In this document: one piece after another, positions 1 through 16,904 of the stretch
Layout of the letters: every line of letters begins with the position of its first letter
Numbering within the stretch: the stretch's first letter is position 1
Assembly (NCBI GenBank): GCA_965372795.1
Contig: CBDVDR010000012.1
Location: 42,446 to 106,445 of the forward strand
DNA from: an uncultured bacterium
Lineage (GTDB): Bacteria > Zixibacteria > MSB-5A5 > GN15 > FEB-12
Direction: 5' to 3'
DNA: 64,000 nucleotides
The notes under the pieces: model-generated
What the model saw: the letters and a program-made list of their open reading frames with translations, nothing else
What the model was told of the DNA's origin: nothing
Database searches by the model: none
Made by a program: the position numbers and the translations under genes

Positions 1-2063
1 CAAGCTCAACCTGCGCATAGATCAGCGTATCAATACTCATCGTTCCCCGCCCGTCAATATCAGGCAGGATTACAATAGAGATTGAATCTTCAGGAATATT
101 CGCCCGTTCGGTCCCTGCCCCGGGGGTAGCCTCGGGGAATAATTTATCCGTATCAAAATAATTTGATTTTAATTCAAATAGAAACAGCGGTTTCTTCGCT
201 CGGGAACGGTCTATATTTTCAAGCGGAAGCAAATATGGAAACGGGTTGGCAAGTTTCCCTGTAAATGAAATATCACTTGAGGTAAACTTGACGGTCATCT
301 TTTTAACTGTAATCGTATCAGGTGCGATACTAAGTGATGATTCAAAAAGTTCTATCGGTTCCGGAAGAAGGTTATCGTTATACGATCCATTTTTAATTAT
401 TACTTCTCCCTGCGAAATTATCCGTTCCGGCTCTTCCATACTGCCGGCAAGTTTTAACCTGATGGACATCTCCCCCTTGAGTTGCGGGTCACCCTTGGGA
501 GGAAGATATTTCGTCAGATAGGAAAAATCGAGTTCAGAATTAAAATCACCGTCAATTTCAGGATAGATCGGATTTTCTTCAAGGCTGTCAGAAATTAAAT
601 AAGGAATCAATTTGGTGATGCGACCATTAAAATTGAAACTACCTGATGACATTTTTCCGGATAGGTTTTCTATTTTTGCCACTTTCTTATCGATATAGGT
701 ATCAATGGTAAATTCCTCCAACGGCTCTGGCAGCAAACCGGAGGAATAATATCCATCGGTGATTTTTAATTTACCTGAATAATCCATATCTCTCAGCTTT
801 TTGGTCTTACCCGAAATTTTCAAATCAAAATCAGCTATCCCGGAAATATCACCCCGGAAATCATCCGGCAAAAACGGGGTTATAAAAGAAAGATTCAACG
901 AGCCGGCCAGGTTGGCATTTATGGTTGGATTCTTAAAATCATCAATTACCAAATGTCCCCGGAGCGGTTTCCCGTCGAATGTCCCCTTTTCAATATTCAA
1001 CCTCAGGTTGTCCGGTTTAAAATCAATCAAAGCCCGTTCAAATTTTAACACGCCCTCAATATCTTTTTGAGTTAAAATAATATTCCCCAGAATAACCGTC
1101 CCATTGTACGACAAAACCTGTTCGCCATCAGGAACATATTCATAATCAACATCTATCGCCAACCCGCCATCAAATTTATAATCTTTGATGACATCCAATT
1201 TCTTAGCAGGTATAAAATTTAACAAATCATCAATCATCACATTGTCTGATTTCAGATTCCCTTTGACATAAAAATTATTTTTTGCATGTGAAACATTGGC
1301 TTTGATTTTGAGTTTCATACCATTCAAATCAAGGCGCGCCTCACTTAATTCAAGCAAGCCGACATTCATATCATAATTAGCCAAATATTTTAAATCGACC
1401 TTAAATACCGGAAGGTCGGTTTTACTTTTAACAACCAGACTGTCGATAGAAACTTCACCCTTGGATTCAAATATCCCCGGCTTATTATTGGCAAGGCTTG
1501 TGGACAGATTTAATCCCATAATTTGCATCGACAAATCAAGGCTGTCATCCCGATAATTGATAGTGCCATTTTCGATTTCAAAATTATCAAACGACAACGC
1601 TACCGAGGCGGCTTTGGTTTCCGGAGTAAGTTTTTCGGCTATTCCCGGGGGGGCTTTTTCTTCAGCTTTTTTAAAAGTATAGTTATTGAACCCGTTCTTA
1701 TTTTTGTGCATCGAGATAATCGGTTGATTGATTATTAACCGGTCGATTCGGAATTCCCCTGAGAAAAGCGGCAAAATTTGAAGTTTCAGATCAATATTTT
1801 CTGCAGTCAGGAAATTTGTTTCATCAAAATTTTCAGGCGTGCTTATTTGAACCTCGACCAGTTTCAACCCCAATCCGCCCCAGATCGAGAGATCGAGTTT
1901 TTCGATTGAAATTTCCCGTTCGAGTAATTCGCTCCCTTTTTCAATTGCCATTGCCTTAACTTTTTCTGCCGGGAAGAAAAGTTTGAATCCGACAACCACA
2001 ACTAACAAAAGTCCTATAAAAACCCCTGCGGTCCAGAGAGATATTTTCAAAAATTTATTCATA
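1..2063 (-). CDS. AsmA-family outer-membrane biogenesis protein (TamB-like fold). The 3' end is truncated by the window edge. It is absent from the ORF track because no in-window stop occurs on this frame.
   Basis: Reverse-complementing 2063 downward gives ATG then MNKFLKISLWTAGVFIGLLLVVVVGFKLFFPAEK... (N-terminal TM helix), followed by a long open beta-rich frame (…KLDLSIWGGLGLKLVEVQIS…, …GKLKITDGYYSS…) that stays open to position 1. The N-terminal anchor and repetitive beta-strand composition are typical of the AsmA/DUF3971 family. Confidence 0.55.
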
Positions 2064-2130
2064 ATGCTCCACTCCAATTTAACTGTATACAGGCGAGACA
2101 AGTATATCTTCCCAACGCATTAATATCAAT

Positions 2131-2159
2131 AAAAAAGGCAGAGCCAAATTGACTCTGCC
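2131..2159 (-). terminator. Rho-independent terminator downstream of the MBL hydrolase gene
   Basis: Hairpin ggcagagccaaattgactctgcc (2137-2159). On the minus strand it is followed by a T-run (plus-strand aaaaaa at 2131-2136), and it lies 23 nt past the stop at 2182. Confidence 0.6.
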
Positions 2160-2181
2160 TTATATCATAAAATTTTAATAA

Positions 2182-2862
2182 TTAGCCCAAATCGATCATT
2201 TCTCCCGGTTTGAGAATAATTACTTCCGAGCCGGTTACTTTTTCAGCAAATTCTTCCGGTTTTGTTTCAATAATCGGAAACGTATTGTAATGAAACGGCA
2301 CTACTTTTTTCGGTTGAATAAGCTCAACCGCTTTCACAGCATCGTCAATACCCATCGTAAAATTATCACCAATCGGCAAAAAGGCCAGATCAATATCATA
2401 CATAGCGCCGATCAGTTTCATATCGTAAAACAAGCCGGTATCTCCGGGATGATAAATAGTTTTACCGCCCATTGTCACCAGGAACCCAACCGGAGGACCG
2501 GTATATCGGGAAGCATCTTCCCCATAGCCGCCGCCGTGATGCGCGATAGTGAGTTTAACTTTTCCAAAATCGAAATCATGAGCCCCGCCGATATGCATCG
2601 GATGGATTTCAGCGCCTTGACTGGCACACAGATGAGCCAATTCAAAATTCGCTATGATCGTGGCTTTGTTACGTTTGGCAATTTCGACCCCATCCCCCAC
2701 ATGATCGCCATGACCATGAGTAATCAACACATGACTGACTATTACATCTTCAGCTTTGATTGGCGAGAGGGGATTTCCGGTGATGAACGGATCGATTATT
2801 ACGTTATGATTATCATGCTCAAGCATCACACAGGAATGACCTAAGAAAGTAACTTTTGGCAT
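2182..2862 (-). CDS. Metal-dependent hydrolase of the MBL fold (UPF0173/YtkL-like)
   Basis: 226 aa. Carries the THGHGDH metallo-beta-lactamase motif plus the downstream His/Asp ligands (…IAHHGGG…, …YHPGDTG…). Confidence 0.85.
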   Translation of the reverse strand: MPKVTFLGHSCVMLEHDNHNVIIDPFITGNPLSPIKAEDVIVSHVLITHGHGDHVGDGVEIAKRNKATIIANFELAHLCASQGAEIHPMHIGGAHDFDFGKVKLTIAHHGGGYGEDASRYTGPPVGFLVTMGGKTIYHPGDTGLFYDMKLIGAMYDIDLAFLPIGDNFTMGIDDAVKAVELIQPKKVVPFHYNTFPIIETKPEEFAEKVTGSEVIILKPGEMIDLG

Positions 2863-2886
2863 TATAAACTCCTTTGATGTTGCTTT

Positions 2887-2954
2887 TTAAATTCAGTTCG
2901 ATATTAAATTCAGCAACTTTTTAAATTCAGCGACCTTTTAAATTCAGTTCCATT
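2887..2954. repeat. Four tandem copies of a 17-bp unit (ttaaattcagNNNNNtt) in the 5' region of the MBL hydrolase gene
   Basis: The ttaaattcag core starts at 2887, 2904, 2921 and 2938, an exact 17-bp period. The array lies 25-92 bp upstream of the minus-strand start at 2862. Confidence 0.7.
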
Positions 2955-3046
2955 GAATTATCATATATGTAATAAAATATTACAGCCTCAGCCTGATTGT
3001 GTCAATATTTTAAATTTAGGGATATTTTGAATCAACCCTGCCTGAT

Positions 3047-3316
3047 TTGATAATAAACCACCCGAAGGGTGTTCTGTTGGGTCCTGATTTGCCGAAGGGA
3101 AATTGTGACCCTACAGCTTCCAATTGGGGTGGGTTTACTATTCATCCTACAAAGAGAAAATCACCCAAAGGGTGTCATTGCGAGGAGCGAAGCGACGAAG
3201 CAATCTCACACTTCGTGTGTCTATTCGAGGTTTTGCGTGGGCGGCAGACGTCCTCGTCTGCCCCATCCTTCGTTCGATATTTTGGCAGCATCACATTGAT
3301 ATAGCCCTACTTGAAC
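3047..3316. other. GC-rich structured non-coding segment (candidate ncRNA or cassette boundary). It contains caccc-N3/4-gggtg hairpins, a GC hairpin at 3239-3264 and the left inverted repeat at 3172-3219.
   Basis: No credible ORF: three mutually overlapping short ORFs occupy three frames on the same strand. GC is markedly above the window average. Motifs include ccacccgaagggtg, tcacccaaagggtg and gggcggcagacgtcctcgtctgcccc. Confidence 0.35.
3172..3219. repeat. Left terminal inverted repeat (IR-L) of the nuclease/K-channel cassette
   Basis: gtgtcattgcgaggagcgaagcgacgaagcaatctcacacttcgtgtg. Its reverse complement recurs at 5439-5485 (cacaaagtgtgagattgcttcgtcgcttctctcctcgcaaagacaa) with about 42 of 47 positions identical. 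Confidence 0.75.
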
Positions 3317-4141
3317 TTATAAATTTTCATCAGAATCATTCAAACCTGAATTTTCTGAAATTTCTTTGTCATTTATATTAGCATTCTTTATAGTTTTTTT
3401 TCTTTTAATCATAGAGTTGCTTTTCTTAAGTTTCTTTAATACATTTTTTAATTCATCTCCTTCAATCACTTCTCTTTTTAAAACCTCATTTAATAATATT
3501 CGATCTATTTCTTCAGTTGAGACTTTAACACCTGAATAAAACTTTCTTAATTCTCTCTTAATCAAATTTAACACCGGATCGGATTGAATGATTGCGCTTA
3601 TGGTAAAACGATTAACATTCTTAATATGCTCATGAAACGTCTCAATTGCACCTTTATTCAACCCTTCTTTACAGAGCAAGAAAAGGCTTTGATGGTCATC
3701 TTTCCTTTTATTGTTTAATTCGAGAAAATTGAATGAACAAATTAAATCTGAACCAATAGGACGTTCAAATTTAATCTTGTGAATCTCCCAAAATTCTCCA
3801 TTTGTTAAAACAACCCATTGAATTCCCTGATTTGAACCATAATTTAATGCTTGTTGTAAATGATTTTCTTTTAAATTTAAACCTACGGCTTTTACCTCAA
3901 TTATAAATTTAATATTTCCATTCATTTTTATAGCAAGATCACAAAAGGTTCCTTTTATAGCTTGTTCACTAGTAACCTCTACATATTTATCATAGCCAAA
4001 GACCCTTGATAACATATCTGTGATAATTGTTACAGTATCAGATTCGTTCACATCTCTGTCTTTTGCACCTAATATGACTTTTTGAAATCCAGGTATTTCT
4101 TTAGTTAGCCTACTAATAACATTTTTTGGAATATTAATCAT
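3317..4141 (-). CDS. Standalone PD-(D/E)xK nuclease-fold protein resembling the type I restriction enzyme HsdR N-terminal (HSDR_N) domain, with an uncharacterised Lys-rich helical C-terminal half
   Basis: 274 aa. …FCDLAIKMNGNIKFIIEVKAVGLNLKENHLQQALNYG…IQWVVLTNGEFWEI… matches the D…(E/D)xK core followed by the TNG motif of the HSDR_N / Mrr-cat-like family. No ATPase or methylase partner lies nearby. Confidence 0.55.
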   Translation of the reverse strand: MINIPKNVISRLTKEIPGFQKVILGAKDRDVNESDTVTIITDMLSRVFGYDKYVEVTSEQAIKGTFCDLAIKMNGNIKFIIEVKAVGLNLKENHLQQALNYGSNQGIQWVVLTNGEFWEIHKIKFERPIGSDLICSFNFLELNNKRKDDHQSLFLLCKEGLNKGAIETFHEHIKNVNRFTISAIIQSDPVLNLIKRELRKFYSGVKVSTEEIDRILLNEVLKREVIEGDELKNVLKKLKKSNSMIKRKKTIKNANINDKEISENSGLNDSDENL

Positions 4142-4234
4142 ATTACCCTCATAAAATAAATATTATTTTCCCACGTAGAAATAATGCATGAATATTATTA
4201 ATATTATAACTATTATGTATTATTATGTCAATAA

Positions 4235-5032
4235 ATGAAATTTGACATTGAGTTTATAAATCATTATTTTAAATTTATGTTAGACAATATTAAAAACTGG
4301 TTTTTCCAAGCTCTTGATAATTCTGAAGAGCAATCAAAGTGGCAAAAGAGTGTAGGAATATTTATAGTTATCCTCATCACTTTCAATGTTGCAGCAGTTA
4401 TTCTTGAAACTGTAAAAAGTATCAATGCTCAACTTTCTGAATTTTTCTATTATTTTGAAATCTTTTCTGTAGTAATATTTTCATTAGAATATGTCATTCG
4501 TATTTGGAGTTGTACAACTATCCCTAAGTACAAACACCCAATTTATGGACGCATCAAGTACGGATCTACTTTTTTAACTCTGGTTGATCTATTTGCAATA
4601 TTACCTTTCTTTTTGCCAATATTTATTGGGCTTGATTTACGATTTATAAGAATATTAAGAATGTTTAGATTCTTTAGAATTCTAAAATTGGGCAGGTATT
4701 CAAAATCAATGAAAGTTTTGGGAAATGTTTTTAATGCCAAAAAAAGTGAACTCTTTGTAAGTGTTTTTATAGTGATGATTTTATTATTGATCTCTTCAAG
4801 TTTGATGTATTTTGCAGAACATAAATCACAACCCGATATATTCTCAAGTATTCCCGCAACTATGTGGTGGGGTATTGCAACCCTTACTACAGTTGGATAT
4901 GGTGATATGTACCCAATCACTGCTCTTGGAAAATTTCTTGGAGCAATCATTTCATTACTTGGTATAGGAATGGTAGCTCTACCTGCCGGTATTTTAGCCT
5001 CGGGGTTTAGTAACGAATTGAAGGATAATTGA
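4235..5032 (+). CDS. Minimal 6-TM voltage-gated potassium channel (KvAP-like) lacking an RCK or other cytoplasmic domain
   Basis: 265 aa. The S4 voltage sensor has Arg at every third position (RFIRILRMFRFFRILKLGR). A pore helix and the canonical K+ selectivity filter (TLTTVGYGDMYP) are followed by an S6 helix. Confidence 0.85.
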   Translation: MKFDIEFINHYFKFMLDNIKNWFFQALDNSEEQSKWQKSVGIFIVILITFNVAAVILETVKSINAQLSEFFYYFEIFSVVIFSLEYVIRIWSCTTIPKYKHPIYGRIKYGSTFLTLVDLFAILPFFLPIFIGLDLRFIRILRMFRFFRILKLGRYSKSMKVLGNVFNAKKSELFVSVFIVMILLLISSSLMYFAEHKSQPDIFSSIPATMWWGIATLTTVGYGDMYPITALGKFLGAIISLLGIGMVALPAGILASGFSNELKDN

Positions 5033-5140
5033 GTTAGAATTACTCCCCCATTTTCCCCACTAATTCGTTGGTGAATGAGAAACCGTACCCCTATATAAAA
5101 GGAGGAACGGTGAGTTATGTCCAAAATTTATGATTAAAAA

Positions 5141-5600
5141 ATTAAAAATCACCCAAAGTGTACGCCAGAGAAAAACACACAAAGTATGCGAAATACACGA
5201 AGTGTGCAAACGAACCCATTTTCATTGTACAAGGATTCGTCATAATGATTTACAGCAATAAAATGAATATTTTCTGGAGTTTACCAAATGACAGAACTGG
5301 CAGGATCGCAGGGATCACTGCCCTACTTGTTGTCAAAAATGAGGAAACGAACCCAAATAGTTGTAATATTAAATCACAGATGAAGTTACAAGGAAATAAA
5401 AGAAAGAGTTACAAAGATAAACATGATAAATATAAACCACACAAAGTGTGAGATTGCTTCGTCGCTTCTCTCCTCGCAAAGACAAAATTGGCAGGATCAC
5501 AGGGATCACTGCCCTACTTGTTGTCTAAAAGTGAAGAAACGAACCCATTTTCATTGTACAAGGATTCGTCATAATGAGTTACAGCGAAAAAGAAATAATT
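5141..5600. repeat. 480-bp repetitive non-coding region between convergent gene ends. It contains a direct-repeat copy of aaaatcacccaaag, duplicated modules A (5211-5259 / 5537-5585) and B (5299-5355 / 5490-5546), and the right inverted repeat IR-R (5439-5485).
   Basis: Module A is gaaacgaacccattttcattgtacaaggattcgtcataatgaKttacagc. Module B is ggcaggatcRcagggatcactgccctacttgttgtcNaaaa…gaaacgaaccca, whose ends form a ggcag…ctgcc hairpin. Only short overlapping ORFs are present. Confidence 0.7.
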
Positions 5601-5610
5601 TAGCGTGAAA

Positions 5611-6696
5611 TTATGCGATCAAGCCGCCGGCAAGGAGATAATCACCTTCATAAAAGACAACCGATTGACCCGGGGTAATCGCTCGTTGGTGATCCTTAAA
5701 AGTCACCTGCACCCGATCATCCGGCAAACAGACCAACTCCGCCGGCCCGGGGGTGTGAAGATAACGAATTTTCACTTCAGCCGAAAATGCCGAAGCGGTC
5801 GGTTGCATCCCGACCCAGTTAATCTGTTCCGCAATCAATTCAAATCTAAACAGAGAATCGTTTTCGCTGACAACAACCCGATTATTGGCCACATCCAGCT
5901 CTTTAACATAAAGCGGGGTCGGATGAGTTAAGCCCAGACCTTTGCGTTGCCCGATAGTATACAGGGCGGTTCCAAGATGTTGACCGAGGACCTCGCCGTT
6001 TTCGTTAACAATTTCGCCCGGTTCGTAATTTCGGTCCTGTTTATGATGATGCTCGATTAAAAAGCGGCGGTAATTATCATCGGGAATAAAACATATTTCG
6101 CGCGACTCGGCTTTGTCGGCCGTGCGAAGTTTATACTTGCGGGCAATCTCGCGAACTTCGCTTTTGAGCAATCCGCCCAAAGGCATCAGAGTTTTCGAGA
6201 GTGCTTCCTGCGAGACACCCCAGAGAACATACGACTGGTCGCGGGAACCATCGATCCCCTTTTTGATTGTGTATCTTTGATTGGGAAGTTTTTCAATTTT
6301 GGCATAATGACCGGTTGCAATATAATCGCATCCAAGTTCGAGAGCTTTTTTTAAAAAGGTATTCCATTTGACATCGGAGTTACATCGCACACACGGGTTC
6401 GGCGTCCGCCCCTGGTCGTATTCGCTGATAAAATCTTTGATAACAGTATCGCGAAAATGTTCGGACATATTTAAAACATAAAATGGGGCATCAATAGAAT
6501 CACAAACAATCCGGCAATCGGTGATCGAATCAATCGTGCAGCACCGGCCGTCTTTGTAAATATCTGCGCCGACATCAACATAGTCCCACAGTTTCATATG
6601 AGCGCCGACAACTTCGTACCCCTGCTCTTTCAACAGAAAGGCGGCCACAGATGAATCGACACCGCCGGACATAGCTACTAATACTTTTTTACTCAT
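5611..6696 (-). CDS. mnmA: tRNA-specific 2-thiouridylase MnmA
   Basis: 361 aa. N-terminal PP-loop VAMSGGVDSSV, catalytic cysteines, and full-length similarity to MnmA/TrmU. Confidence 0.93.
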   Translation of the reverse strand: MSKKVLVAMSGGVDSSVAAFLLKEQGYEVVGAHMKLWDYVDVGADIYKDGRCCTIDSITDCRIVCDSIDAPFYVLNMSEHFRDTVIKDFISEYDQGRTPNPCVRCNSDVKWNTFLKKALELGCDYIATGHYAKIEKLPNQRYTIKKGIDGSRDQSYVLWGVSQEALSKTLMPLGGLLKSEVREIARKYKLRTADKAESREICFIPDDNYRRFLIEHHHKQDRNYEPGEIVNENGEVLGQHLGTALYTIGQRKGLGLTHPTPLYVKELDVANNRVVVSENDSLFRFELIAEQINWVGMQPTASAFSAEVKIRYLHTPGPAELVCLPDDRVQVTFKDHQRAITPGQSVVFYEGDYLLAGGLIA

Positions 6697-6722
6697 AAGA
6701 TTTCAGATTTTTTGGCAATAGC

Positions 6723-7901
6723 TCAAGTTGCCTGACTTCCTTTTTTATAAACCGGCGATAAATCGCGCAGTCTTTCAATTATCGGTGCCAATTCGGTGAC
6801 TACAAAATCGAGTTGTTCTTTCGTGGTTGATCGTCCCAAAGAAAAACGAATCGCACCCTGGGCTCTAAGCGGTGGAATATTCATCGCCGTTAAAACATGC
6901 GATGGTTCGGTGGCACCCGAAGTACAGGCTGAACCGGATGAGACAGAGATGCCTTTGAGATCAAGCCCGAGAACAATCGACTCACCTTCGGCACCAACGA
7001 ATGACAGATTTACAGTTTGCGGAATCCTATTTGCAGCAGGACTGTTAAGATAAGTATCAGGAATATCGTTTTTGACTTGTTCAATGAAATAATCCGCCAT
7101 TTTTGACAGACGTTCATAATCAGTTTCCCGGCATTTTTCGGCAATCTCCAAAGCTTTGGCAAGTCCAACCGCCCCGGCAACATTTTCAGTCCCCGGTCGG
7201 CGTTTTTTTTCGTGCGACCCGCCATAAATTAACGGTGCGATTTTTACACCGGCACGAATAAACAAAGCACCGGTTCCCTTGGGTCCGTAAATTTTATGAC
7301 CCGTCAACGACATCATATCAACGCCGAGTTCTTTGGCGTCGACCTTGACTTTGCCGATTGACTGGACCGCATCGGTATGAAAAAGGCTTTGCTTCTTTTT
7401 GACAACCTCACAGAGAGCTTTGATATCCTGAATTGCGCCGGTTTCGTTATTGCCGTGCATCACCGAAACAATTGCGGTATTGTCTTTGACTAAACTTTGA
7501 AGTTCATCGACTGATGAAAAACCTTCGCTGTTAACTCCGAGCAGATCCAGCTCGAACTCTTTGTTATGATGCAGGTATTCGGCCGGTTCTAAAATAGCAT
7601 GGTGTTCTGCGGCACCGACGATCAGGTGATTTTTTCTGGCTCCATATTGAAATATGGTGCCGAAGATCGCCATGTTATCCGATTCGGTTCCGCCGGAGGT
7701 GAAGTATAATTCCTGCGGTTCGCAATTTATAATTTCCGCAATAGTTTCTCTTGAGTTTTCCAAAGCAACTTTTGCATCTCTTCCAAAGTTGTGAACCGAG
7801 CTGGCATTGCCGAATTTTTCGGTCAGATAAGGAAGCATCGCTTCGACAACAGCCTCGTCTACGGGAGTAGTAGCATTATGATCAAGATATATTTGTTTCA
7901 T
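6723..7901 (-). CDS. Cysteine desulfurase (class V aminotransferase, IscS/NifS family). It likely supplies sulfur to MnmA.
   Basis: 392 aa. YLDHNATTP N-terminus, PLP-lysine region (SLTGHKIYGPKGTGALF) and the SSGSACTS active-site cysteine loop. Sits immediately upstream of mnmA. Confidence 0.9.
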   Translation of the reverse strand: MKQIYLDHNATTPVDEAVVEAMLPYLTEKFGNASSVHNFGRDAKVALENSRETIAEIINCEPQELYFTSGGTESDNMAIFGTIFQYGARKNHLIVGAAEHHAILEPAEYLHHNKEFELDLLGVNSEGFSSVDELQSLVKDNTAIVSVMHGNNETGAIQDIKALCEVVKKKQSLFHTDAVQSIGKVKVDAKELGVDMMSLTGHKIYGPKGTGALFIRAGVKIAPLIYGGSHEKKRRPGTENVAGAVGLAKALEIAEKCRETDYERLSKMADYFIEQVKNDIPDTYLNSPAANRIPQTVNLSFVGAEGESIVLGLDLKGISVSSGSACTSGATEPSHVLTAMNIPPLRAQGAIRFSLGRSTTKEQLDFVVTELAPIIERLRDLSPVYKKGSQAT

Positions 7902-7967
7902 TTATATTCCTTCTTTATTCCAAACTTATACGCCATCAAGTAATTTTTCTCTAAAGAAAATTGTAAT

Positions 7968-9902
7968 TTAGAAGGCGTACAATATAGTAAAATGCCATCT
8001 ATCCGCAAAGTCAAAATAATCAGTTTTTATCCGGCGAGCATAATCGACTCTGATAGGACCTGCCGGCGAAACTAATTGTAACCCGGTTCCATAACTGAGC
8101 GCAAGATGATTAAAATGAAATCCTCTATGGTCTGAAAATCCGTTACCAACATCAACAAAGACAGACTGCCAGAGGGGAAAAGTTCTAAGAAGATCATTCA
8201 AAACCGGTATGACGCTAAAAAGCTGTAATGTTTTCCAGCGAAATTCCTGATTGAAAACAACCGTAAAATCGGCTCCTAAGGGAAGGTTATCAGACCCAAC
8301 CGGACCAAGGGTGTTTTCTCTGAAAGCTCTTATGCTATTGGCTCCACCCAAATAGAGCCGGTCATTTATTGGAACTACCGAAGAGTTTCCAAAAGCTTCA
8401 ACGGAGCCTAATTTTATTCTTGTAGCCGAGATCCATCCGGGCCAGACAATCATATACCTTGACCAACTAACTTCAAGGTGAGTAAAATTATCATCACCGC
8501 TTAAGATCCCGCCATAATATTCACCAATTATTTCAGTTACGGAACCTCTTCTGGGTAGAAAAATATTGTCCCGGCTATCACGGCGAAAAGTCAGATACAA
8601 CTTTCTACGAACCGAGAGAAGGTTTTCCGCTTTTATAATTTCTTCCAATTCTGCCGAAGCCCCGGAAATTTTAATCGATTCATACTCAAGCCCCACTGTT
8701 GTTCTTATTTTATGTCCGAATCTTTTTTGGGAGGCAACTGATAATGACCACGATCTTATTAAATAGTCCTGTACCGGGTCTTTCAAAGTCGGTTCCCATT
8801 CTCCGGTAATAGCCAGAGGCATTCTTAGACCGATGAACCATGGTTCTGTAAATCGTAAACGATAGCGATGAGTAATTAATTCTACTCCGTCACCTAAAGC
8901 TAAAGAGTAGTCGGCAAGGATATCATATCTTCTGGAACCCAAAAAATTCCGTTTACCAAATCCACTTGAGATGTCCCAGATCAAATCTTTATAGACCGAT
9001 TGACCGGCACCGGTTTGGAGCGTGAAATATTTTGGCTTACGTTCTCGCACTCGAAGGACAAAATCGGGTTGGAGACGGTTAAGGTTTTCTTTTTTATGGT
9101 TTAATTGTAAAGTGCTAAAATACCCGGATTCAAACAACCGTCTTTGTGAATCCAGAATTGTTCTTCGGCGGTAGATGTCGTTATTGTTTATTTTAACTTC
9201 TCGCCGGGCAGTATATTCGGGGTAACGGTCAATCCCTTCAATTTCAACCTTTCCAAAATGAGTCAAAGAATCAGAATCGATATAAAATATTAAGGGAGGC
9301 AAATCATTTATTTTAGCAGTATCAACAATATGACTTATTCGAGCGTAGGGATAGCCTTCGTTGGCAAGAATAGTTTTCATCGCAAAGCCAGCCTGTTGAA
9401 CTTCAAAAAGATTTAATGGTTTTCCTTTTTTCAACCCATCAGCTATTTTATTAAATCCATGTTGAAGCTCTTCGGGATAATTCCCTTTAATCTGCTTATC
9501 GCCATAAAAATATTGTTTCCCTTCGTTGATACCAACTCTGATCAAGGCTGATGAATCTGGTCTCATCTCAAAAAATTCAACAACAGAAATATTAAGAAAT
9601 CCTTTTGAAAGATAAATGAATTTTATCTCAAGCGAATCCCGTTCGGGAGTTTCCCTTTGGATTTTCCTGCGCCGATCTCCTTTGATAACTTTCCAAATGG
9701 AATTTTCCCGGGAGTACATCCTCTTTTTAATATGACTGTCAGTAAAATATTCATTACCTTCAATTACTATAGAATCGATAACAGGTTTGTCTCTCAGCCA
9801 TCTCAAATGGGCTTTATCAACAGCCTGGCTATCTTCTGAAGAAAAGACAGAAAACAAAATCATAAAAAAAAGAACTGATATGAATAAACGAAATCTTATC
9901 AC
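7968..9902 (-). CDS. tamA: Omp85-family outer-membrane protein with POTRA domains (TamA-like)
   Basis: 644 aa. Signal peptide, POTRA-like segments (IDSIVIEGNEYFT…), and a C-terminal beta-barrel ending in an aromatic residue (…FTILYAF). Encoded directly after a TamB-like gene. Confidence 0.7.
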   Translation of the reverse strand: MIRFRLFISVLFFMILFSVFSSEDSQAVDKAHLRWLRDKPVIDSIVIEGNEYFTDSHIKKRMYSRENSIWKVIKGDRRRKIQRETPERDSLEIKFIYLSKGFLNISVVEFFEMRPDSSALIRVGINEGKQYFYGDKQIKGNYPEELQHGFNKIADGLKKGKPLNLFEVQQAGFAMKTILANEGYPYARISHIVDTAKINDLPPLIFYIDSDSLTHFGKVEIEGIDRYPEYTARREVKINNNDIYRRRTILDSQRRLFESGYFSTLQLNHKKENLNRLQPDFVLRVRERKPKYFTLQTGAGQSVYKDLIWDISSGFGKRNFLGSRRYDILADYSLALGDGVELITHRYRLRFTEPWFIGLRMPLAITGEWEPTLKDPVQDYLIRSWSLSVASQKRFGHKIRTTVGLEYESIKISGASAELEEIIKAENLLSVRRKLYLTFRRDSRDNIFLPRRGSVTEIIGEYYGGILSGDDNFTHLEVSWSRYMIVWPGWISATRIKLGSVEAFGNSSVVPINDRLYLGGANSIRAFRENTLGPVGSDNLPLGADFTVVFNQEFRWKTLQLFSVIPVLNDLLRTFPLWQSVFVDVGNGFSDHRGFHFNHLALSYGTGLQLVSPAGPIRVDYARRIKTDYFDFADRWHFTILYAF

Positions 9903-9904
9903 TA

Positions 9905-12900
9905 TTAAAATTCCAAATGCAGTTTTAAGTTCAAGTGATACAATTCTTCTTCATCCCGTCTTCCTTCAACTAAGAAGGCTTTGTTAAAGCGATATTCAAA
10001 GCCAACCTCCTGTCCGCTCTGACCGGATAGCTGGGACTTACCATACACATATAATCCCTGAGTTGTATAAAAACCAACCGTTATTCGAGTACTTAAAGGA
10101 TTTGCCAGAGTTCCCGAGTAAGGTTCGATTTCAAATGTTTCCACTCCCACCCCGAGTTCGTTTAATTGCCGGGCTCCGATTTGCGATACCTGCGATGAAA
10201 GTATTCCGGTAAAGCGTTCTTCAAACTGTCCGGTTGAGGAAGTTGTGTCGCCGCTGTAATAGTTTGCTACAATTAATGGAATGATATCTTCTTTTGAAAA
10301 GGTTGAGCCATCGACAGGATTTATATCCGCAGTATCAAGCGTTCCGGTCACATGTACTCCAAGCTCAATTAAATCTCTGGTTTCATTTTCTTCAAAAGCA
10401 GCTTGTGATAAACCCGGTACTCTGGTGTAGCCGATAAAATCCAGTCGGGGATTAAATCGTTCTTCGCCTTCAAACAACACCAGACCGCCTTGTTCCAGAC
10501 GGAAAGTTTTATCAAACAGATAACCGCGTCCCCGTACAATTTCCATCTCTCCAATAAAACGATACTGACCATCATCACGAAGAAGTTTTACCAGTCCGGA
10601 AAATTCAGCATCAATGTCTTCATTTTTAATCCAGTAATTGGAAAGGATGTCAATATTGATATCAAGGTCCCAAGTATTTTCACCTGATAGTGCCATCATT
10701 ATAGGTGAGCCTTCATCAGGTTCAGCAAAATTCACAAGATACCTCATGGTCAGCAAGGTAATATCACCGGTGACCAAAGGAGGGGTATCGCCTTCTATAT
10801 GCAATTCACCTTCAAGTTTCCCGCGAATATCATCGAGTTCGTAAGCGAAAGGGAAATCCTTTTTAATTTCCACATCAAGATCATAAAAAAGATTATCGAA
10901 AGAGTTTACAACGATATTTCCTTCGAGATTAGCATACCTTTTTTTGCCGCCCCGTTTTTTATTTTCGGTTGAATACATTTCCATATTTTCAATAATGATC
11001 AGATTATCCCTCATTATTGCAGTTGCCGTATCAACAAATATTGGATGTTCCAGATCAAAATATTTTAGGCGGCCGTTTATAATGGTAGCCAGACCTTCAA
11101 GATGCGGTTCTTGAGAAGTACCGCTCAGCCTTATATTAGAATAAAAATCTCCATCAAGCTGTTCTACCGAGGGTAAAATCAGACTGACTAAATCAAAGCG
11201 ATTGTCTTGTGCCGTAACTCGGAAATCCATCGGTTTATCGGGAAGTCTATCAATGTTAGCAGAAGTAAAAGCAAGATCAATCGGGAAATATCCATTACCG
11301 TAATATAGTCCCGGGTCCGAGAAAATCACGACGCTATCGACTGATAGGATATAGTCAGAATAATTTAAGGAGGCTGTCATATTGCCCAGGATGAGATCAC
11401 GATACTCAAGCGAATCAATAGTTCCGTCTACTTTGATTTCGGGTTTAAGGAAGTTTCCTGCGAGTCTACCATCACAAGAAAGTACTCCCCCCAGATCATA
11501 AGAGCCTTCAAATAATTTCACCCATGGTGCAATATCAACCTGTTTTATCAAGATCGCCATATCCATTGATTCATCAAAATTTACTCTGCCCACTGATGAA
11601 AGAAGAGCGTCCTCACTTTTAATGACCGCTTGTAAAAAATCAAAACCAAGAGTATCGACTAAAAATTCAATTTCATATTCATTACTAAAGGTTCGATCAA
11701 AGAGATTTATGTTCAAAGTATCAAGATGTACCTGAAATGGATATTCACCATAATCCAGGTAGCCCTTACTGGTCATTACTGCTAACTCGTTTCTAATATT
11801 CGCAGTATCAATAAATACTAAATTTGAATCAATCGTGATAATTGCTTTAGCGGTATCAAATGGGAGCGACCAGGCTTGACCGGAGAAAAAGTCAACTTCC
11901 ACTTTTCCCTGTTTACCGGTTAAGAACCGATCAATGTCAAAAGTTGAATAAAGGCTGTCGGAATATAATCCATAGATCCAAATCGAATCAGAGATAAAAT
12001 ATCCGCTCAAATCCGGGAAAGCTGTTTTACCGGTCAGGGTTGCTTCGCCATAGCCTCTGCCACCCGGTTGATCGATAAACAATTTCCCGCGATAACGATC
12101 AAGATTGTCGAGGTTCGCAATTATGGCCAGGTCGATATCATTTCTGTATTCTACCTTTCCATTAACAAAAAATCTATTTTCAAAATAGTCGATCCTGAAA
12201 TAATCACTGAACATAATCGAATCAGTTGTGATAGACATCATCCCTTTAGCAGAATGTATCGGATATTTATCAAAAGCTGATTCATACAGATCAGCATCGA
12301 TATCAATTAGCATTCTTTCTTTTTTAAAGGCTCTTCCGCTTAATTCGATATGTCCGGATAAATCAGATTCAAAAGAATTATTGACCATGTTTTTCAAATT
12401 AAAATTTCTTAGATCGGCAGAGACAAGGTATGTTTTTTCAGGTTTCGTAAAATCAATCGCACCCGACCCGTCAACTTTACAATTTCCTAAGAAAGTACCA
12501 TAGATCGTATCAAAGCTTAAATATTTATCGGCATAATTAAAATCTGTGTAAATATTTTGGAAGCTAACCGAAAAGAATTTCCCGCCAATATCTACCGAAC
12601 CATTAAATTTAGCACCCTCAAAAGATATATTACCATTGAGATCAACTTCACCATTTAGTTTGGCGCCTGTAAATTGAGTAACATCGTTTATGTCAATATT
12701 GTCAATTACAAACTCAACATTCCCCTTAAGAATATCCTCAAAGGAAACATTGCCATTAAATTTCATTTTAGTTTTATCAGAGCTTAAAGAGACATCCTGA
12801 AAGACAAGTGTTTTGTTATGATAGGTAAGTTTTCCTTCGGCTGACTCAAGAAAATACTTTTCCTGATTAGACTGGAAAGCTAATGATTTTAACTCAAGAG

Positions 12901-13450
12901 AATAAGTGTTCTCGGTTAATTTTATTCCTGCTCTAAAATTAAAATCATTGACTAAAAGAGTATCTTTGTTATCGATAAATTTAAAATTCAGGTTATTGAT
13001 AATTAACTCATCAACAGCCAGCATTGATAGAATAATTCCGGAACTTTCAGTGTCAGTTTTCTTTGAAAAATCAGGGATCATCATAGCGCCGGTTGAGTCT
13101 TTTTTCAGCATGATTTCGGCTGAGTCAATGGTCAGGTAATCGAAAATATATTTTCTATCCCATAAATTTGAAAAAGAATAGGCTGCCGTAATTTTTGGGA
13201 AATAAATAAGCCGGTAACTGCTGGCTGAATCATCATAGAAGATTGAAAGACTTTTCAGTTCAATACCAGAGAGTATATTCCCATTGATTTCCCCGATAGT
13301 AAATTTAATATCTGATTGTTCTTTAAAGCTTTCGGACAATTGTTTTTGAACAATTTCTTCAAACCCGCCCAGTTCAAATAGAAACAAAAAGGTTCCACTA
13401 ACTAAAAGAACTATTATTATCAGCGATATGTAGATTATTTTTTTTAACAT
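9905..13450 (-). CDS. tamB: Translocation and assembly module TamB-like protein (DUF490 / AsmA-like)
   Basis: 1181 aa. N-terminal TM anchor (IIYISLIIIVLLVSGTFLFLF) and a long beta-rich body. The C-terminal region (…VGFEYRFNKAFLVEGRRDEE…HLEF) is typical of DUF490. Forms a gene pair with tamA. Confidence 0.7.
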   Translation of the reverse strand: MLKKIIYISLIIIVLLVSGTFLFLFELGGFEEIVQKQLSESFKEQSDIKFTIGEINGNILSGIELKSLSIFYDDSASSYRLIYFPKITAAYSFSNLWDRKYIFDYLTIDSAEIMLKKDSTGAMMIPDFSKKTDTESSGIILSMLAVDELIINNLNFKFIDNKDTLLVNDFNFRAGIKLTENTYSLELKSLAFQSNQEKYFLESAEGKLTYHNKTLVFQDVSLSSDKTKMKFNGNVSFEDILKGNVEFVIDNIDINDVTQFTGAKLNGEVDLNGNISFEGAKFNGSVDIGGKFFSVSFQNIYTDFNYADKYLSFDTIYGTFLGNCKVDGSGAIDFTKPEKTYLVSADLRNFNLKNMVNNSFESDLSGHIELSGRAFKKERMLIDIDADLYESAFDKYPIHSAKGMMSITTDSIMFSDYFRIDYFENRFFVNGKVEYRNDIDLAIIANLDNLDRYRGKLFIDQPGGRGYGEATLTGKTAFPDLSGYFISDSIWIYGLYSDSLYSTFDIDRFLTGKQGKVEVDFFSGQAWSLPFDTAKAIITIDSNLVFIDTANIRNELAVMTSKGYLDYGEYPFQVHLDTLNINLFDRTFSNEYEIEFLVDTLGFDFLQAVIKSEDALLSSVGRVNFDESMDMAILIKQVDIAPWVKLFEGSYDLGGVLSCDGRLAGNFLKPEIKVDGTIDSLEYRDLILGNMTASLNYSDYILSVDSVVIFSDPGLYYGNGYFPIDLAFTSANIDRLPDKPMDFRVTAQDNRFDLVSLILPSVEQLDGDFYSNIRLSGTSQEPHLEGLATIINGRLKYFDLEHPIFVDTATAIMRDNLIIIENMEMYSTENKKRGGKKRYANLEGNIVVNSFDNLFYDLDVEIKKDFPFAYELDDIRGKLEGELHIEGDTPPLVTGDITLLTMRYLVNFAEPDEGSPIMMALSGENTWDLDINIDILSNYWIKNEDIDAEFSGLVKLLRDDGQYRFIGEMEIVRGRGYLFDKTFRLEQGGLVLFEGEERFNPRLDFIGYTRVPGLSQAAFEENETRDLIELGVHVTGTLDTADINPVDGSTFSKEDIIPLIVANYYSGDTTSSTGQFEERFTGILSSQVSQIGARQLNELGVGVETFEIEPYSGTLANPLSTRITVGFYTTQGLYVYGKSQLSGQSGQEVGFEYRFNKAFLVEGRRDEEELYHLNLKLHLEF

Positions 13451-13461
13451 AATTCAAACAG

Positions 13462-14124
13462 CTAATTAAGCTCATCTATAATTGAGCAGGCACTTTTATA
13501 TCCATCACCGGCCGAGATACTGATATCTTCAACAACTTGCCGAACCATCGCAAGGGATGCGCCCACATTTAAAGAACCTTTAATGTGTGAATAAAGTTGC
13601 TTATATTTATTCTCCACCGTTAAAATTGCTACAATTGCAAGTTCACGATCAATGATCCCTAATTGGTCTCTTGATAAAACCTTTCCATAACCTTCTACAA
13701 CCATCCAGCGAAAAATCTCCGGTGCTATTTTTTCAACTTTGTTTTTTAAAGAATCAAATTTATCAGTGTAAACCAGATTACATAAATTCATACCTCGTTT
13801 AAACCATGAATTAGCTTCATCCTCGGTAATTGGATTTAGGCTTACCTGTCCGGGATTAACCGGATTGTATTTATCGAGGAATTCCGCAGCGATTAACATC
13901 CGGGGGAATCCAAGAAAGAGATATGATTGCAGCATGATTTCATATAAATACTCTGATGGAACCAATAGTTGTTTAGATTTTCCCAATATAATTTTAGATG
14001 ATGATTCATCAGCGAAGGCAATTGCAGCAGCATACATTGACAGGGTACGGCTGAGGATATTTTCATCCGGTGAAAAGTTGTCAAGCCTTCGATGGAATTC
14101 GCCAATGTCTGCTGTTAAATTCAT
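13462..14124 (-). CDS. Carboxymuconolactone-decarboxylase-like (AhpD-fold) protein with non-canonical active-site residues
   Basis: 220 aa. RELAIVAILTVENKYKQLYSHIKGSLNVGAS resembles the CMD helix-turn motif but lacks the usual Cys. The assignment is tentative. Confidence 0.3.
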   Translation of the reverse strand: MNLTADIGEFHRRLDNFSPDENILSRTLSMYAAAIAFADESSSKIILGKSKQLLVPSEYLYEIMLQSYLFLGFPRMLIAAEFLDKYNPVNPGQVSLNPITEDEANSWFKRGMNLCNLVYTDKFDSLKNKVEKIAPEIFRWMVVEGYGKVLSRDQLGIIDRELAIVAILTVENKYKQLYSHIKGSLNVGASLAMVRQVVEDISISAGDGYKSACSIIDELN

Positions 14125-14169
14125 ACTGTAAAGAAAGATAATATTATAAAAGATAGCAATGTCAAATTA

Positions 14170-15354
14170 CTATTTTAAGCGGATCAATTTTTTTTCAAGT
14201 TTATACAATGCCGATTTAAGTGAATTTATTTCATTTAGGAGGGATTCTCTAGAAGATTTTGATAAAATTCTATTAGCCTGATTATTAACTGATGGCCTTT
14301 CGATATTCAAACTTCCACTGCCGATAGTCATTTTTACAAAAAACGGTATATTTTTACGAATTAACCCGATCTCAACAATCGTTCCCGGAGTCGTGCGAAT
14401 AATCTCTTTTTTTAGCCCGGCAGCGGAACTTATGTTTACACCATTATATTTAAATAACAGGTCACGTTTCATCAGACCTGCTTTTTTAGCCGGTGAATTT
14501 GGATCAATGTCGGTAATCAGAAGTCCTCGACTAATCATCAGACCGCTTCTGTTACTGACGTTAATTATCTCACCGGGAAGATTTATGACGATTCCGGGTG
14601 AAATTTCAATCTCTGAGGTTGTTATTCCGATAAAACCTGCTAATCGGCTTCCATACCTTAAAATATGCTGAACAACAGCCGGAATCAGATGTGCCGGAAT
14701 AGCAAGTCCTGCACCCGGGCTGTCGGGAGAATTTATACTACCGGATATAATACCAACAAGATTACCTGTAAGGTCGAATAAACCTCCACCAATAGTTCCA
14801 GATGTTAAAGCACCGGAATATTGGATTAAACCTTCCGGGCGAACTCCAGCGCAAAAGCCTAAGGTTGGACTTGAGCGAAGCCCATAGGCATTGCCCAAAG
14901 CTATAATCAGTTGTCCCCCGCATAAATATTGTTTTGAAATTTGGGCTGGTTGTCCGATACGTTTATCAATTTCAAGTAGTGCCAAACCGGTTTGGTAATC
15001 AATTCCAAGCAATTTTGCCGGAAGGGTATGCTGATTAAAATGAACCGCTATTTTATCTGAACCGGCGACACTCTTGGCTGAAGTGATAATATGGCCGAGG
15101 CTGTCATAGATAATGCCCGAAGAAATCATGCTATGAACCAGCTCTTCCCCGCTTCCAAAATAATTTGTATATGAAACAGGTTTGATTACTTCAACAGTGA
15201 CAACCGAACCAGACAGATTGTAGATTAGATCGTTTATTTCTGATTCAATAGAATAAAGCGTACTGTCTGACGAGTATGTGGAAGTTGTAAAAAAGACCGT
15301 TAGAATAACGCCTGACAGACAAGCTCTAACGGTCCTGTAAAAATTCGTTAGCAT
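14170..15354 (-). CDS. HtrA/DegP-fold protein with a C-terminal PDZ domain. It is predicted catalytically inactive because all three triad positions appear substituted.
   Basis: 394 aa. A by-eye alignment to E. coli DegP gives TSAKSV versus TNNHVV (His to Lys), TGLALLEI versus SDIALIQI (Asp to Gly) and GTIGGGL versus GNSGGAL (Ser to Ile). The GLAIPA segment and the PDZ region (ITDIDPNSPAKKAGL) are conserved. Confidence 0.6.
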   Translation of the reverse strand: MLTNFYRTVRACLSGVILTVFFTTSTYSSDSTLYSIESEINDLIYNLSGSVVTVEVIKPVSYTNYFGSGEELVHSMISSGIIYDSLGHIITSAKSVAGSDKIAVHFNQHTLPAKLLGIDYQTGLALLEIDKRIGQPAQISKQYLCGGQLIIALGNAYGLRSSPTLGFCAGVRPEGLIQYSGALTSGTIGGGLFDLTGNLVGIISGSINSPDSPGAGLAIPAHLIPAVVQHILRYGSRLAGFIGITTSEIEISPGIVINLPGEIINVSNRSGLMISRGLLITDIDPNSPAKKAGLMKRDLLFKYNGVNISSAAGLKKEIIRTTPGTIVEIGLIRKNIPFFVKMTIGSGSLNIERPSVNNQANRILSKSSRESLLNEINSLKSALYKLEKKLIRLK

Positions 15355-15355
15355 T

Positions 15356-16066: not shown

Positions 16067-16625
16067 TATATTCCTCCACTCTGGGTTTTAATTTATCTCG
16101 CAACATCAACCTTGCCCGATTAACTCTTGATTTTACAGTTCCAAGAGGCACATCCAGCACTTTTGCTACTTCGTCGTATGCCATCTCCTGGACATCACGT
16201 AACATAAAGGCGGTACGGTATTTTTCGGGTAAGCTTGATATTGCTTCATTAAGGACTTCCGGGAGTCTTGTCGGGATTTTCATCTCAACGGCAAACTCCT
16301 TTTCGTTCCCTTTCATTTCAGTAATATCGTAATGTTTAAATTTCTTTCTTTTTCGCAATTCATTGCGACCTAAATTTAACCCGATAGTGTAAATCCAGGT
16401 TGACAGACAATGCTGGAAATTGAATGATTGACGATGTTGATAAACACGGATAAATGTTTCCTGAACAATATCCTCGGCTTCTTCGGTCGAATTGACCATC
16501 CGCCCAATAACATTCATAAGTCGGTCTTTGTATCGGTCGACCAATTCGTTGAAGGCAACCATATCGCCGTTTTGCACGGCTTTCATCAACCTAAAATCAA
16601 TATCTTTTTCAGATTCTTTCGCCAT
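16023..16625 (-). CDS. ECF (group IV) sigma-70 factor, RpoE-like
   Basis: 200 aa. Region 2 (…ETFIRVYQHRQSFN…) and region 4 HTH (…YDEVAKVLDVPLGTVKSRVNRARLMLRDKL). Confidence 0.9.
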   Translation of the reverse strand: MAKESEKDIDFRLMKAVQNGDMVAFNELVDRYKDRLMNVIGRMVNSTEEAEDIVQETFIRVYQHRQSFNFQHCLSTWIYTIGLNLGRNELRKRKKFKHYDITEMKGNEKEFAVEMKIPTRLPEVLNEAISSLPEKYRTAFMLRDVQEMAYDEVAKVLDVPLGTVKSRVNRARLMLRDKLKPRVEEYNALSKNTLLPVSFL

Positions 16626-16866: not shown

Positions 16867-16904
16867 CAAAGACTGGATCCCCGCGTTCGCGAGGATGACA
16901 ATAG
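16867..16904. repeat. Copy 1 of a 36-38-nt palindromic repeat (caaagactggatccccgcgttcgcgaggatgacaatag). A degenerate partial copy lies just upstream at 16835-16864.
   Basis: Identical 38-mer at 17350-17387 and a 33/36 match at 17441-17473. The core atccccgcg-ttc-gcgaggat forms an imperfect hairpin. Confidence 0.8.

Follow-up and report, generated by a model that had tools for sequence, protein, structure and literature searches.

Zorya couples ZorAB, a membrane ion-channel and motor complex, to the nuclease-helicase effectors ZorC and ZorD, and Kiwa combines the membrane sensor KwaA with the DNA-binding effector KwaB. RexAB and other ion-channel abortive-infection systems are generally known to join a DNA-sensing cytoplasmic partner to a membrane channel. 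Here we analyse a two-gene cassette in a 64-kb stretch of contig CBDVDR010000012.1 from an uncultured Zixibacteria bacterium (hereafter the window, to which all coordinates refer unless a locus label precedes them), in which genes for a standalone PD-(D/E)xK nuclease and a voltage-gated K+ channel lie between mnmA and a metallo-beta-lactamase (MBL)-fold hydrolase gene. The window belongs to a 337.5-kb metagenome scaffold (ENA ERZ23498685, ZORZ22-1 scaffold_4), and its MnmA falls into one cluster, at 90% identity or more, with a protein of Candidatus Zixiibacteriota. By analogy, Zorya and Kiwa are the nearest counterparts of the pair in logic, sharing with it an ion-conducting or sensing membrane part beside a cytoplasmic DNA-targeting effector and an organization as small operon-like modules with patchy horizontal spread. 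Homology is absent, as PADLOC models including those for Zor and Kwa gave no match at E <= 0.1; the membrane part in the window is a canonical tetrameric Kv-type (voltage-gated potassium) channel with an S4 segment and not the MotAB-like stator of Zorya, and its effector is a 274-aa standalone PD-(D/E)xK protein. RexAB is likewise not homologous, RexB is not a K+-selective voltage-gated channel, and the partner protein in the window has an intact nuclease site. The pair is not described in PADLOC, NCBIfam or the literature searched, and a nuclease-Kv channel module thus appears to be undescribed in these resources.

The joint explanation that we favour, with about even confidence, is that the cassette is an acquired insertion carrying a two-gene functional module, likely in defence, and that the inverted repeats around it are generic units. 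Its genes and their immediate neighbours are as follows:

2182-2862, minus strand: MBL-fold hydrolase gene (Lactamase_B_2, 4e-26), left edge of a variable slot
3317-4141, minus strand: gene for a standalone HsdR-N / RecB-type PD-(D/E)xK nuclease of 274 aa (HSDR_N_2, PF13588)
4142-4276: divergent control region with promoter-like sites for both genes
4235-5032, plus strand: gene for a six-transmembrane voltage-gated K+ channel, 265 aa from ATG 4235
5611-6696, minus strand: mnmA (tRNA_Me_trans, 3.4e-73), right edge of the variable slot, with synteny in loci L153, L154 and L156

A recurrent nuclease-channel pair

The minus-strand gene had been read in a first-pass annotation of the window as a standalone HsdR_N-like nuclease, and profile searches bear this out. 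The protein scores 29.4 bits against HSDR_N_2 (cutoff 25) and 22.6 bits against HSDR_N, under the cutoff of 25.1 for that family, and its motif is complete, with D68, E82-x-K84 and Q97xxxY101 invariant across 24 homologues at a mean column identity of 64%. Because the full catalytic motif is invariant, we argue that the protein, a predicted nuclease whose motif looks intact, is a real DNA-cutting enzyme. Behind the core come a helical C-terminal part and a tail rich in Lys and Arg; in the AlphaFold2 model, predicted local distance difference test values are 84-94 over most of residues 1-160 and 64-77 at residues 51-70, and the helical C-terminal part is less certain. No characterized member of this nuclease family was matched, with an empty result from a PDB sequence search and weak Foldseek matches to restriction enzyme folds (DrdV, HsdR fragment 3h1t, TT1808 and Cas4; best E = 0.013).

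The HSDR_N_2 score and the D...ExK...QxxxY motif ally the protein with Type I HsdR and with the predicted Type IV enzymes of HSDR_N, HSDR_N_2 and COG2810. A survey of PD-(D/E)XK proteins lists the family with COG2810 as predicted Type IV enzymes (PMC3424549), and homologues carry the JGI label 'predicted type IV restriction endonuclease'. In contrast to HsdR, the window protein has no helicase/translocase domain, no HsdM or HsdS neighbours and no detected reader domain: the nuclease domain stands alone in 274 aa, no methylase or specificity gene occurs within 10 kb, and Pfam finds no modified-base reader domain. Identity with a Type I HsdR was rejected on the absence of superfamily 2 helicase/translocase domains and of HsdM/HsdS partners. 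The family corresponds to phrog_17239 (277 bits) and is large, with 5895 matches in a word-indexed search, 393 clusters at 50% identity and E <= 1e-30, and at least 586 loci in GTDB representative genomes. It is spread across many phyla; it also occurs in 67 IMG/VR contigs, on Leptospira plasmids and in one Thermus phage, and the closest homologue is 67% identical. Some members are fused or extended, including P0379 (471 aa) with an N-terminal TerD domain (5e-29), P0432 (407 aa) with a C-terminal DUF4268 domain, and P0396 (339 aa) with a 93-residue N-terminal extension for which no type was identified.

The divergent partner, annotated at first pass as a voltage-gated K+ channel, matches Ion_trans (PF00520) at 109.5 bits (2e-31) and Ion_trans_2 at 2.3e-12, with intact S4 and filter. 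Arginine recurs at every third residue of S4 (RFIRILRMFRFFRILKLGR), the selectivity filter reads TTVGYGD, and R122, R125, R128, R131, R134, K137, R140 and the T-x-G-Y-G-D signature are invariant in 20 channel homologues. The six-transmembrane Ion_trans architecture, the ladder of arginines in S4 and the TVGYGD filter are those of prokaryotic Kv channels of the KvAP/KvLm type, from which the window channel differs in its linkage to a nuclease gene, in lacking a CPHCG tail and in its score of 43 bits against NCBIfam K_channel_Meth, far under the equivalog cutoff of 300; the NCBIfam scan gave no equivalog match for either protein. The channel family has more than 7600 matches, and the closest full-length homologue is 64% identical. 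The window channel ends right after S6, without the C-terminal ICPHCG zinc-ribbon-like tail seen in the consensus of its closest homologues (alignment A3), which include the paired channels of L010, L013 and L278. In L004 (1-1861; ENA ERZ27227322 k141_1841707), an 88%-identical channel fragment is truncated on its 5' side at the S3/S4 boundary (~1128), just downstream of a hairpin, GGGTCACAATCCACCTTCGGTGAATCAGGACCC, that by eye resembles window 3082-3114 reversed; its neighbours are a methyltransferase gene and a partial gene, GyrA-like by eye, and it has no nuclease gene.

The control region between the two genes contains a perfect sigma-70 promoter for the nuclease gene on the minus strand (TTGACA-17-TATAAT, 4231->4203) and, on the plus strand, a TTGACA-17-TATTTT site at 4242-4270 placed for a near-leaderless channel mRNA from ATG 4277. 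Alignments with channel homologues begin near residue 13-16 of the reading frame that starts at 4235, and a predicted start at ATG 4277 (251 aa) is more likely than one at ATG 4235.

We examined co-occurrence of the two genes in 80 nuclease loci, the best matches to one query alignment, with one genome per species and nucleases 45-63% identical to that of the window; these 20-kb loci (~1.2 Mb) were searched with the window channel and a channel hidden Markov model. In 8 of the 80, the nuclease has a full-length channel as its direct neighbour, and two decayed remnants were found in addition. The eight pairs are:

L010: Zixibacteria, channel then nuclease, with overlapping open reading frame (ORF) calls
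L013: Proteobacteria, nuclease then channel
L016: Omnitrophota, nuclease then channel
L032: Kiritimatiellales, channel then nuclease, with overlapping ORF calls
L039: Acidobacteriota, convergent
L055: Planctomycetota, channel then nuclease, with overlapping ORF calls
L064: Betaproteobacteria, nuclease then channel
L080: Hydrogenedentota, channel then nuclease, with overlapping ORF calls

Signs of decay are visible at a second site of L039 (15962-16443), where a C-terminal channel fragment precedes an N-terminal nuclease fragment 5 kb from the intact convergent pair, and in L017 (9731-9874), where a 48-aa channel pore fragment lies upstream of an intact nuclease at a decayed junction. Full-length channels in the 80 loci stand exclusively next to the nuclease; apart from these, an adjacent fragment was matched in L057, and L047 and L049 (Pontiella) gave weak voltage-sensor-like matches at a distance of a few genes. 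The channel is the top Pfam family among immediate nuclease neighbours, and in all-against-all clustering of 154 such neighbours it forms a group of 8 members, followed by one of 3 and by pairs mostly from closely related genomes.

Further pairs occur in L127, a viral contig with convergent genes; in L278, whose channel belongs to the three closest homologues examined and where the genes stand head-to-head as in the window, surrounded by IS110, a Shedu SduA_C protein and SIR2+HerA; and in L283, where the channel gave the top match of 80 viral-contig channel loci and the preceding nuclease is 30% identical. Pairs span at least nine phyla. Their channels fall into four subtypes with less than 40% mutual identity, their nucleases are 40-68% identical, and the channel-linked nucleases are scattered over the nuclease family tree. 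In one subtype (L032 387-1139, L055 9238-10002 and L080 1769-2548), the filter reads TGEYGD, the C-terminus carries a coiled coil, and the channel and nuclease ORF calls overlap; the ion selectivity of this subtype may differ. No channel accompanies the nearest nuclease homologues with usable contigs (L002, L003 and L280/L281), and none is annotated in the one Leptospira plasmid neighbourhood inspected (H2). Proteins P0004 and P0170 come from contigs of equal length (3025 bp), which was judged a coincidence in view of the lack of a detected channel in L002.

The two families are large, with 5895 and more than 7600 matches, and have been transferred widely; most of their members are unpaired, and both have PHROGs of unknown function, so that the two genes might be passengers of the same kind of islands, co-transferred or juxtaposed by chance, with no functional meaning in their adjacency. 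We consider this decidedly improbable in view of the adjacency in 8 of 80 loci with two remnants, the confinement of full-length channels to the nuclease's side, and the spread of pairs over at least nine phyla. The pairs involve four divergent channel types, occur in every orientation and include loci whose ORF calls overlap where the genes meet, and no second neighbour family is seen as often beside the nuclease. Chance adjacency of two sparse families cannot explain this pattern. A freestanding homing endonuclease was also rejected as the cause of the link, since the genes come in varying order and conservation is higher in the nuclease than in the channel. Because the two families are linked in many unrelated bacteria, we regard the pair as a functional unit and not a chance neighbourhood. 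Judged from gene order and sequence conservation, the two genes are a recurrent and often co-transcribed unit of intact-looking proteins that probably work together. The first-pass annotation had left open that the pairing was fortuitous and that orthologues might never be adjacent elsewhere; the recurrence across phyla contradicts both.

An insertion between mnmA and the MBL-fold gene

The cassette lies where the first-pass annotation had placed it, between the MBL hydrolase gene and the mnmA block. The nearest MnmA orthologues usable for synteny are 74-78% identical and sit in a conserved block in the order sigma factor, anti-sigma factor, protease, TamB, Omp85, cysteine desulfurase and MnmA. 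An empty site of the kind that annotation had proposed to look for exists in L156, a 2.26-Mb contig whose MnmA is 74% identical: its order is TamB-Omp85-IscS-MnmA-[141 nt]-MBL-AsmA, the cassette is absent, and the 141-nt mnmA-MBL spacer contains none of the window's repeats. An AT-rich DUF3187 gene (341 aa; 11130-12155) fills this slot in L153, the nearest long-contig relative, whose MnmA is 78% identical. In L005, with an MnmA at least 90% identical, the contig ends inside mnmA and the slot is not covered. Because the junction is empty in L156, holds a DUF3187 gene in L153 and holds the gene pair in the window, it is a variable slot, and it is a hotspot for accessory genes.

The region between the MBL gene and mnmA is an accessory insertion. 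The nuclease and channel genes have a G+C content (GC) of 27-30%, against 40-50% in the flanking genes; pair and flank values are 0.29 and 0.40-0.42, and pair GC is below that of the flanks in 5 of 9 pair loci with flanks. Genes within 10 kb on either side have no recorded transposase, integrase or resolvase family, in agreement with the first-pass annotation, and no tRNA gene that could serve as an attachment site occurs in 1-20000. On the favoured explanation, the 2.7 kb between mnmA and the MBL gene is a horizontally acquired insertion in a variable slot, with a self-contained, divergently transcribed two-gene module as its cargo. The idea of a mobile or recombination-delimited accessory cassette therefore survives as an accessory insertion, marked by the empty site and low GC, and loses its proposed element-specific boundaries.

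Generic repeats around the cassette

The repeats in and around the cassette, together with a related locus elsewhere in the window, are as follows:

2880-2964: four to five copies of a tandem 17-nt repeat CTTTTTAAATTCAGNNN (spacing 17, 17, 17), upstream of the MBL-fold gene
3059-3071 and 3082-3114: small hairpin CACCCGAAGGGTG and 33-nt hairpin GGGTCCTGATTTGCCGAAGGGAAATTGTGACCC, terminator-like (DNA fold z = -3.2)
3157-3170, plus strand: copy 1 of a 14-nt direct repeat, part of hairpin CACCCAAAGGGTG (3162-3174)
3173-3219, plus strand: left inverted-repeat arm, 34-nt unit GTCATTGCGAGGAGCGAAGCGACGAAGCAATCTC (3174-3207) and hairpin CACACTTCGTGTG (3207-3219)
3240-3266: GC-rich hairpin GGGCGGCAGACG-TCCT-CGTCTGCCCC (DNA fold -10.8 kcal/mol, z = -3.4)
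5145-5158, plus strand: copy 2 of the 14-nt direct repeat, degenerate hairpin CACCCAAAGTGTA
5200-5591, plus strand: direct-repeat mosaic of a 63-nt module and a 53-nt hairpin module, two copies each
5438-5484, minus strand: right inverted-repeat arm, hairpin CACACAAAGTGTG and 34-nt unit at 5450-5483, two mismatches against the left copy in a 32-nt core
16868-17472, minus strand: small GIY-YIG nuclease gene (ORF 17063-17347, 94 aa, GIY-YIG Pfam 8e-17) and bounding units

The inverted repeat, put at about 45 nt in the first-pass annotation, is present as two 47-nt arms, 3173-3219 and 5438-5484, that are complementary at 44 of 47 positions (94%) with 2218 nt between them, and it is the strongest inverted repeat of the whole window. 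The 32-nt arm core at up to three mismatches has two sites in the window, the arms themselves, where shuffled sequences predict 0. The 14-mer AAAATCACCCAAAG, which was thought to bracket the gene pair, occurs exactly at 3157 and 5145 and nowhere else in the window (2 matches in 1 of 100 shuffles), but gives no simple bracket: it is a member of a small-hairpin family, AAAnCACnC-AAA-GnGTG, with at least four in-register copies (3053, 3156, 5144 and 5432) and relatives at 5172, 5190 and 3207. Its left copy lies outside the left arm and its right copy inside the right arm, an offset and asymmetric arrangement, and on the minus strand copy 1 forms a terminator-like short hairpin with a T-run downstream of the nuclease gene. 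As a hairpin-family member offset relative to the arms, the 14-nt repeat was rejected as a target-site duplication; none was found elsewhere, the outer flanks ...CCAAAGGG| and |AAATTGGC being different and no direct repeat abutting the arm ends.

Both flanks are laden with repeats, as first described, the left one with the 17-nt tandem repeats and with GC-rich hairpins, the right one with the 63-nt and 53-nt direct repeats. The 17-nt repeats overlap promoter-like sites and could be operator sites or iterons. The 63-nt module has copies at 5200-5262 and 5529-5591 (90% identical), one on each side of the right arm, and the 53-nt hairpin module at 5287-5339, inside that arm, and 5478-5530, outside it (91% identical); because both modules occur on its two sides, the right arm is no clean border between foreign and native DNA. 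In blastn searches of both flanks against all 362 fetched loci, the 34-nt unit alone recurs and the 53-nt, 63-nt and other modules do not, and an Rfam scan of 2800-5700 returned nothing relevant.

The 34-nt unit is widespread. Exact copies of a 23-nt arm core, GAGMGAAGCGACGAAGCAATCTC, are present in at least 120 metagenome contigs (L157-L276), whose GC ranges over 28-74%. The 11 nt ahead of the core agree with GTCATTGCGAG, one mismatch being allowed, in 123 of 132 copies in these contigs, which makes the whole unit, GTCATTGCGAG...GCAATCTC, almost invariant across the set. Its length of 34 nt is given by an abrupt loss of similarity at either end. Within 120 nt downstream, 52 of the 132 copies have an inverted relative (GAGATTGC...CTCGCAATGAC), with a median gap of 23 nt. 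Both window arms carry an extra 13 nt (ACACTTYGTGTG) without counterpart in the metagenome copies and are thus each other's closest relatives. The unit folds no better than shuffled sequences (z = -1.1), and a self-contained hairpin was rejected; it has no Rfam model, and no description was found in the literature searched. Because the core occurs in at least 120 contigs of unrelated composition, the arms are, by sequence comparison, a generic widespread unit and not cassette-specific transposon ends. The inverted and direct repeats thus fail as specific boundaries of a mobile element, the former for its generic core and the latter as one of a hairpin family.

Units in the window number six in all and are confined to the cassette arms and the GIY-YIG locus, about 12 kb from the cassette, where the gene is bounded by GTCATCCTCGCGAACGCGGGGATCCAG (minus strand; first base G ~16899, 17382 and 17472) and GTCATTCCTGTGAAAACAGGAATCCAG (17029-17055). 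Two contigs of the unit-bearing set encode a GIY-YIG homologue, L205 (613-888) and L168 (1864-2142), and in both the unit and its inverted partner directly flank the 94-aa gene with GTCAT outermost. All eight close GIY-YIG relatives in viral contigs (L363-L370), which were found with an alignment query where a single-protein scan gave no match, lie among GTCAT-hairpin-ATGAC units; the stems of these units vary by lineage, and the GTCAT...ATGAC ends recur in most. With GTCAT outermost, the window arms match the GIY-YIG-flanking units and the tight inverted pairs in polarity. The relation between the GIY-YIG gene and solitary units looks like that between autonomous elements and miniature inverted-repeat transposable elements (MITEs). 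The cargo, held between two 34-nt units in their usual polarity, would fit insertion into, or recombination at, a unit pair.

The units are short, palindromic, intergenic and multi-copy, frequently occur as inverted pairs and accompany a small nuclease gene with units on its own flanks. In this they resemble repetitive extragenic palindromes (REPs) and bacterial interspersed mosaic elements with their REP-associated tyrosine transposases (RAYTs), as well as MITEs. The gene associated here encodes a 94-aa GIY-YIG protein and not a Y1 (IS200/IS605-like) enzyme as in RAYTs, and the 34-nt unit is near-identical across contigs of 28-74% GC whereas REPs are species-specific. Target-site duplications are absent, and the window has only its six units. 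Measured against transposons, insertion sequences (IS) and MITEs in general, the locus has terminal inverted repeats (47 nt, 94%) and no target-site duplication, and it differs from an integron gene cassette in that its repeats are inverted, not direct, with no integrase within 10 kb. The first-pass annotation had entertained generic REP-like elements as a source of its repeats, which proved apt for the inverted-repeat unit, the direct repeat belonging instead to the hairpin family. Its MITE-like alternative comes nearer the truth than a plain REP, since the unit flanks small GIY-YIG genes in the same polarity, but it had cast the gene pairing as fortuitous, which the pairing is not.

Active mobility of the cassette is possible. 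The segment between the arms might be a non-autonomous element moved in trans, with the small GIY-YIG nuclease as candidate, and this can hold together with the explanation that we favour. It is suggested by the match in polarity between the arms and the units of L205, L168 and the tight inverted pairs, by the presence in the window of such a gene bounded by related units, by the setting of all eight GIY-YIG relatives and by the empty site in L156. Two other pairs are tightly bracketed by repeats, L080 by a 28-nt inverted repeat (93%; 1703-1730 / 3435-3462) and L055 by a 40-nt direct repeat (92.5%; 8882-8921 / 10933-10972), but these are unrelated in sequence to those of the window. Matching polarity has a 50% chance, target-site duplication is absent, repeat modules cross the right arm, and the GIY-YIG gene is on 2 of the at least 120 unit-bearing contigs. 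Small GIY-YIG proteins are not known to drive transposition by any mechanism, and the collections searched contain no second copy of the cassette, with the closest nuclease at 67% and the closest full-length channel at 64% identity. We therefore think mobilization in trans quite unlikely. Elsewhere in the window, diverged direct repeats of 52-86 nt at 38358-40140 (73% identity, spacings 732 and 1731 nt) probably represent repeated domains of a large coding region.

Candidate roles of the pair

Members of the nuclease family are neighbours of genes for TIR, NERD and SNase proteins, a cytosine methylase, a ZorD-like helicase, BrnT/CopG, HigB, PIN proteins and IS elements, and in one case of an AAA_15 ATPase matching PADLOC AriA. 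From the nuclease family itself, its patchy mobile distribution and these frequent neighbours, we infer a role in conflict with invading DNA. The occurrence of the family on viral contigs, plasmids and a phage and its TerD-nuclease fusion add to this defence or mobile setting. An anti-phage or abortive-infection role of the pair, as first proposed, is plausible on such sequence evidence, and the most likely role would be defence against phages or other invading DNA, with the nuclease as DNA-cutting effector and the channel coupling it to the state of the membrane. The voltage sensor might detect the depolarization or K+ leak of phage DNA entry and license the nuclease, or the engaged nuclease might open the channel and drain K+ as an abortive back-up. 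In its strongest form, the proposal would make nuclease and Kv channel a physical complex and a new anti-phage system, in which the voltage sensor responds to the depolarization or K+ leak and turns on the nuclease where the phage genome enters, or signalling runs the other way and K+ efflux serves as the abortive arm; this specific version we hold to be unlikely.

Several observations weigh against a defence module. The suggested profile search for a known defence system came back empty, with PADLOC-DB 2.0 yielding 0 families at E <= 0.1 for both proteins, and a K+-selective channel is an unusual killing device. Nuclease loci without a channel make up about 90% of those sampled, a sample that is not random, and a nuclease is missing from 79 of the 80 viral-contig channel loci and from 2 of the 3 closest channel homologues examined. 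Because most homologues of both proteins are unpaired, the two genes are optional partners, and the nuclease presumably can function without the channel. Pair loci lie partly among housekeeping genes, as in L010 with a KUP gene before the channel, and the KUP genes of L010 and L056 point to K+ physiology and not defence.

A physiological link would make the nuclease-fold protein an accessory or regulatory partner of K+ transport in ion homeostasis or stress, for example as a cytoplasmic subunit of the Kv channel or as a DNA enzyme tuned by cytoplasmic K+. KUP, channel and nuclease genes follow one another on one strand in L010 (7151-10843), KUP abuts the nuclease convergently with the channel absent in L056 (7046-9916), and KUP lies 7 kb from the nuclease in L061 (8335-10161); a P-type ATPase adjoins the pair in L055, TerD, fused to one nuclease, is a cation-binding stress domain, and housekeeping genes flank several pair loci. 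The KUP counts are nevertheless small (3 of 80), the catalytic motif of the nuclease is fully invariant, and pair GC is below the flanks in five of nine loci. The family is moreover patchy and horizontally spread on plasmids, in phages and in IMG/VR contigs, often beside toxin-antitoxin, IS and defence genes. On balance, a purely physiological partnership seems improbable to us, and we retain an acquired two-gene module, likely in defence, as the preferred explanation.

The 34-nt unit and the small GIY-YIG genes to which it is tied represent a class of element for which no description was found in the literature searched. The nuclease-channel pair gives a concrete, testable hypothesis, a coupling of DNA cleavage to membrane voltage or K+ flux. 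Should the pair act against phages, it would be a type of system absent from current catalogues and would extend the theme of membrane sensor and DNA effector known from Zorya and Kiwa. To our knowledge, the physiological purpose of bacterial voltage-gated K+ channels is still largely open, and if the voltage-sensing complex proved true, prokaryotic voltage-gated K+ channels would gain a defined physiological role.

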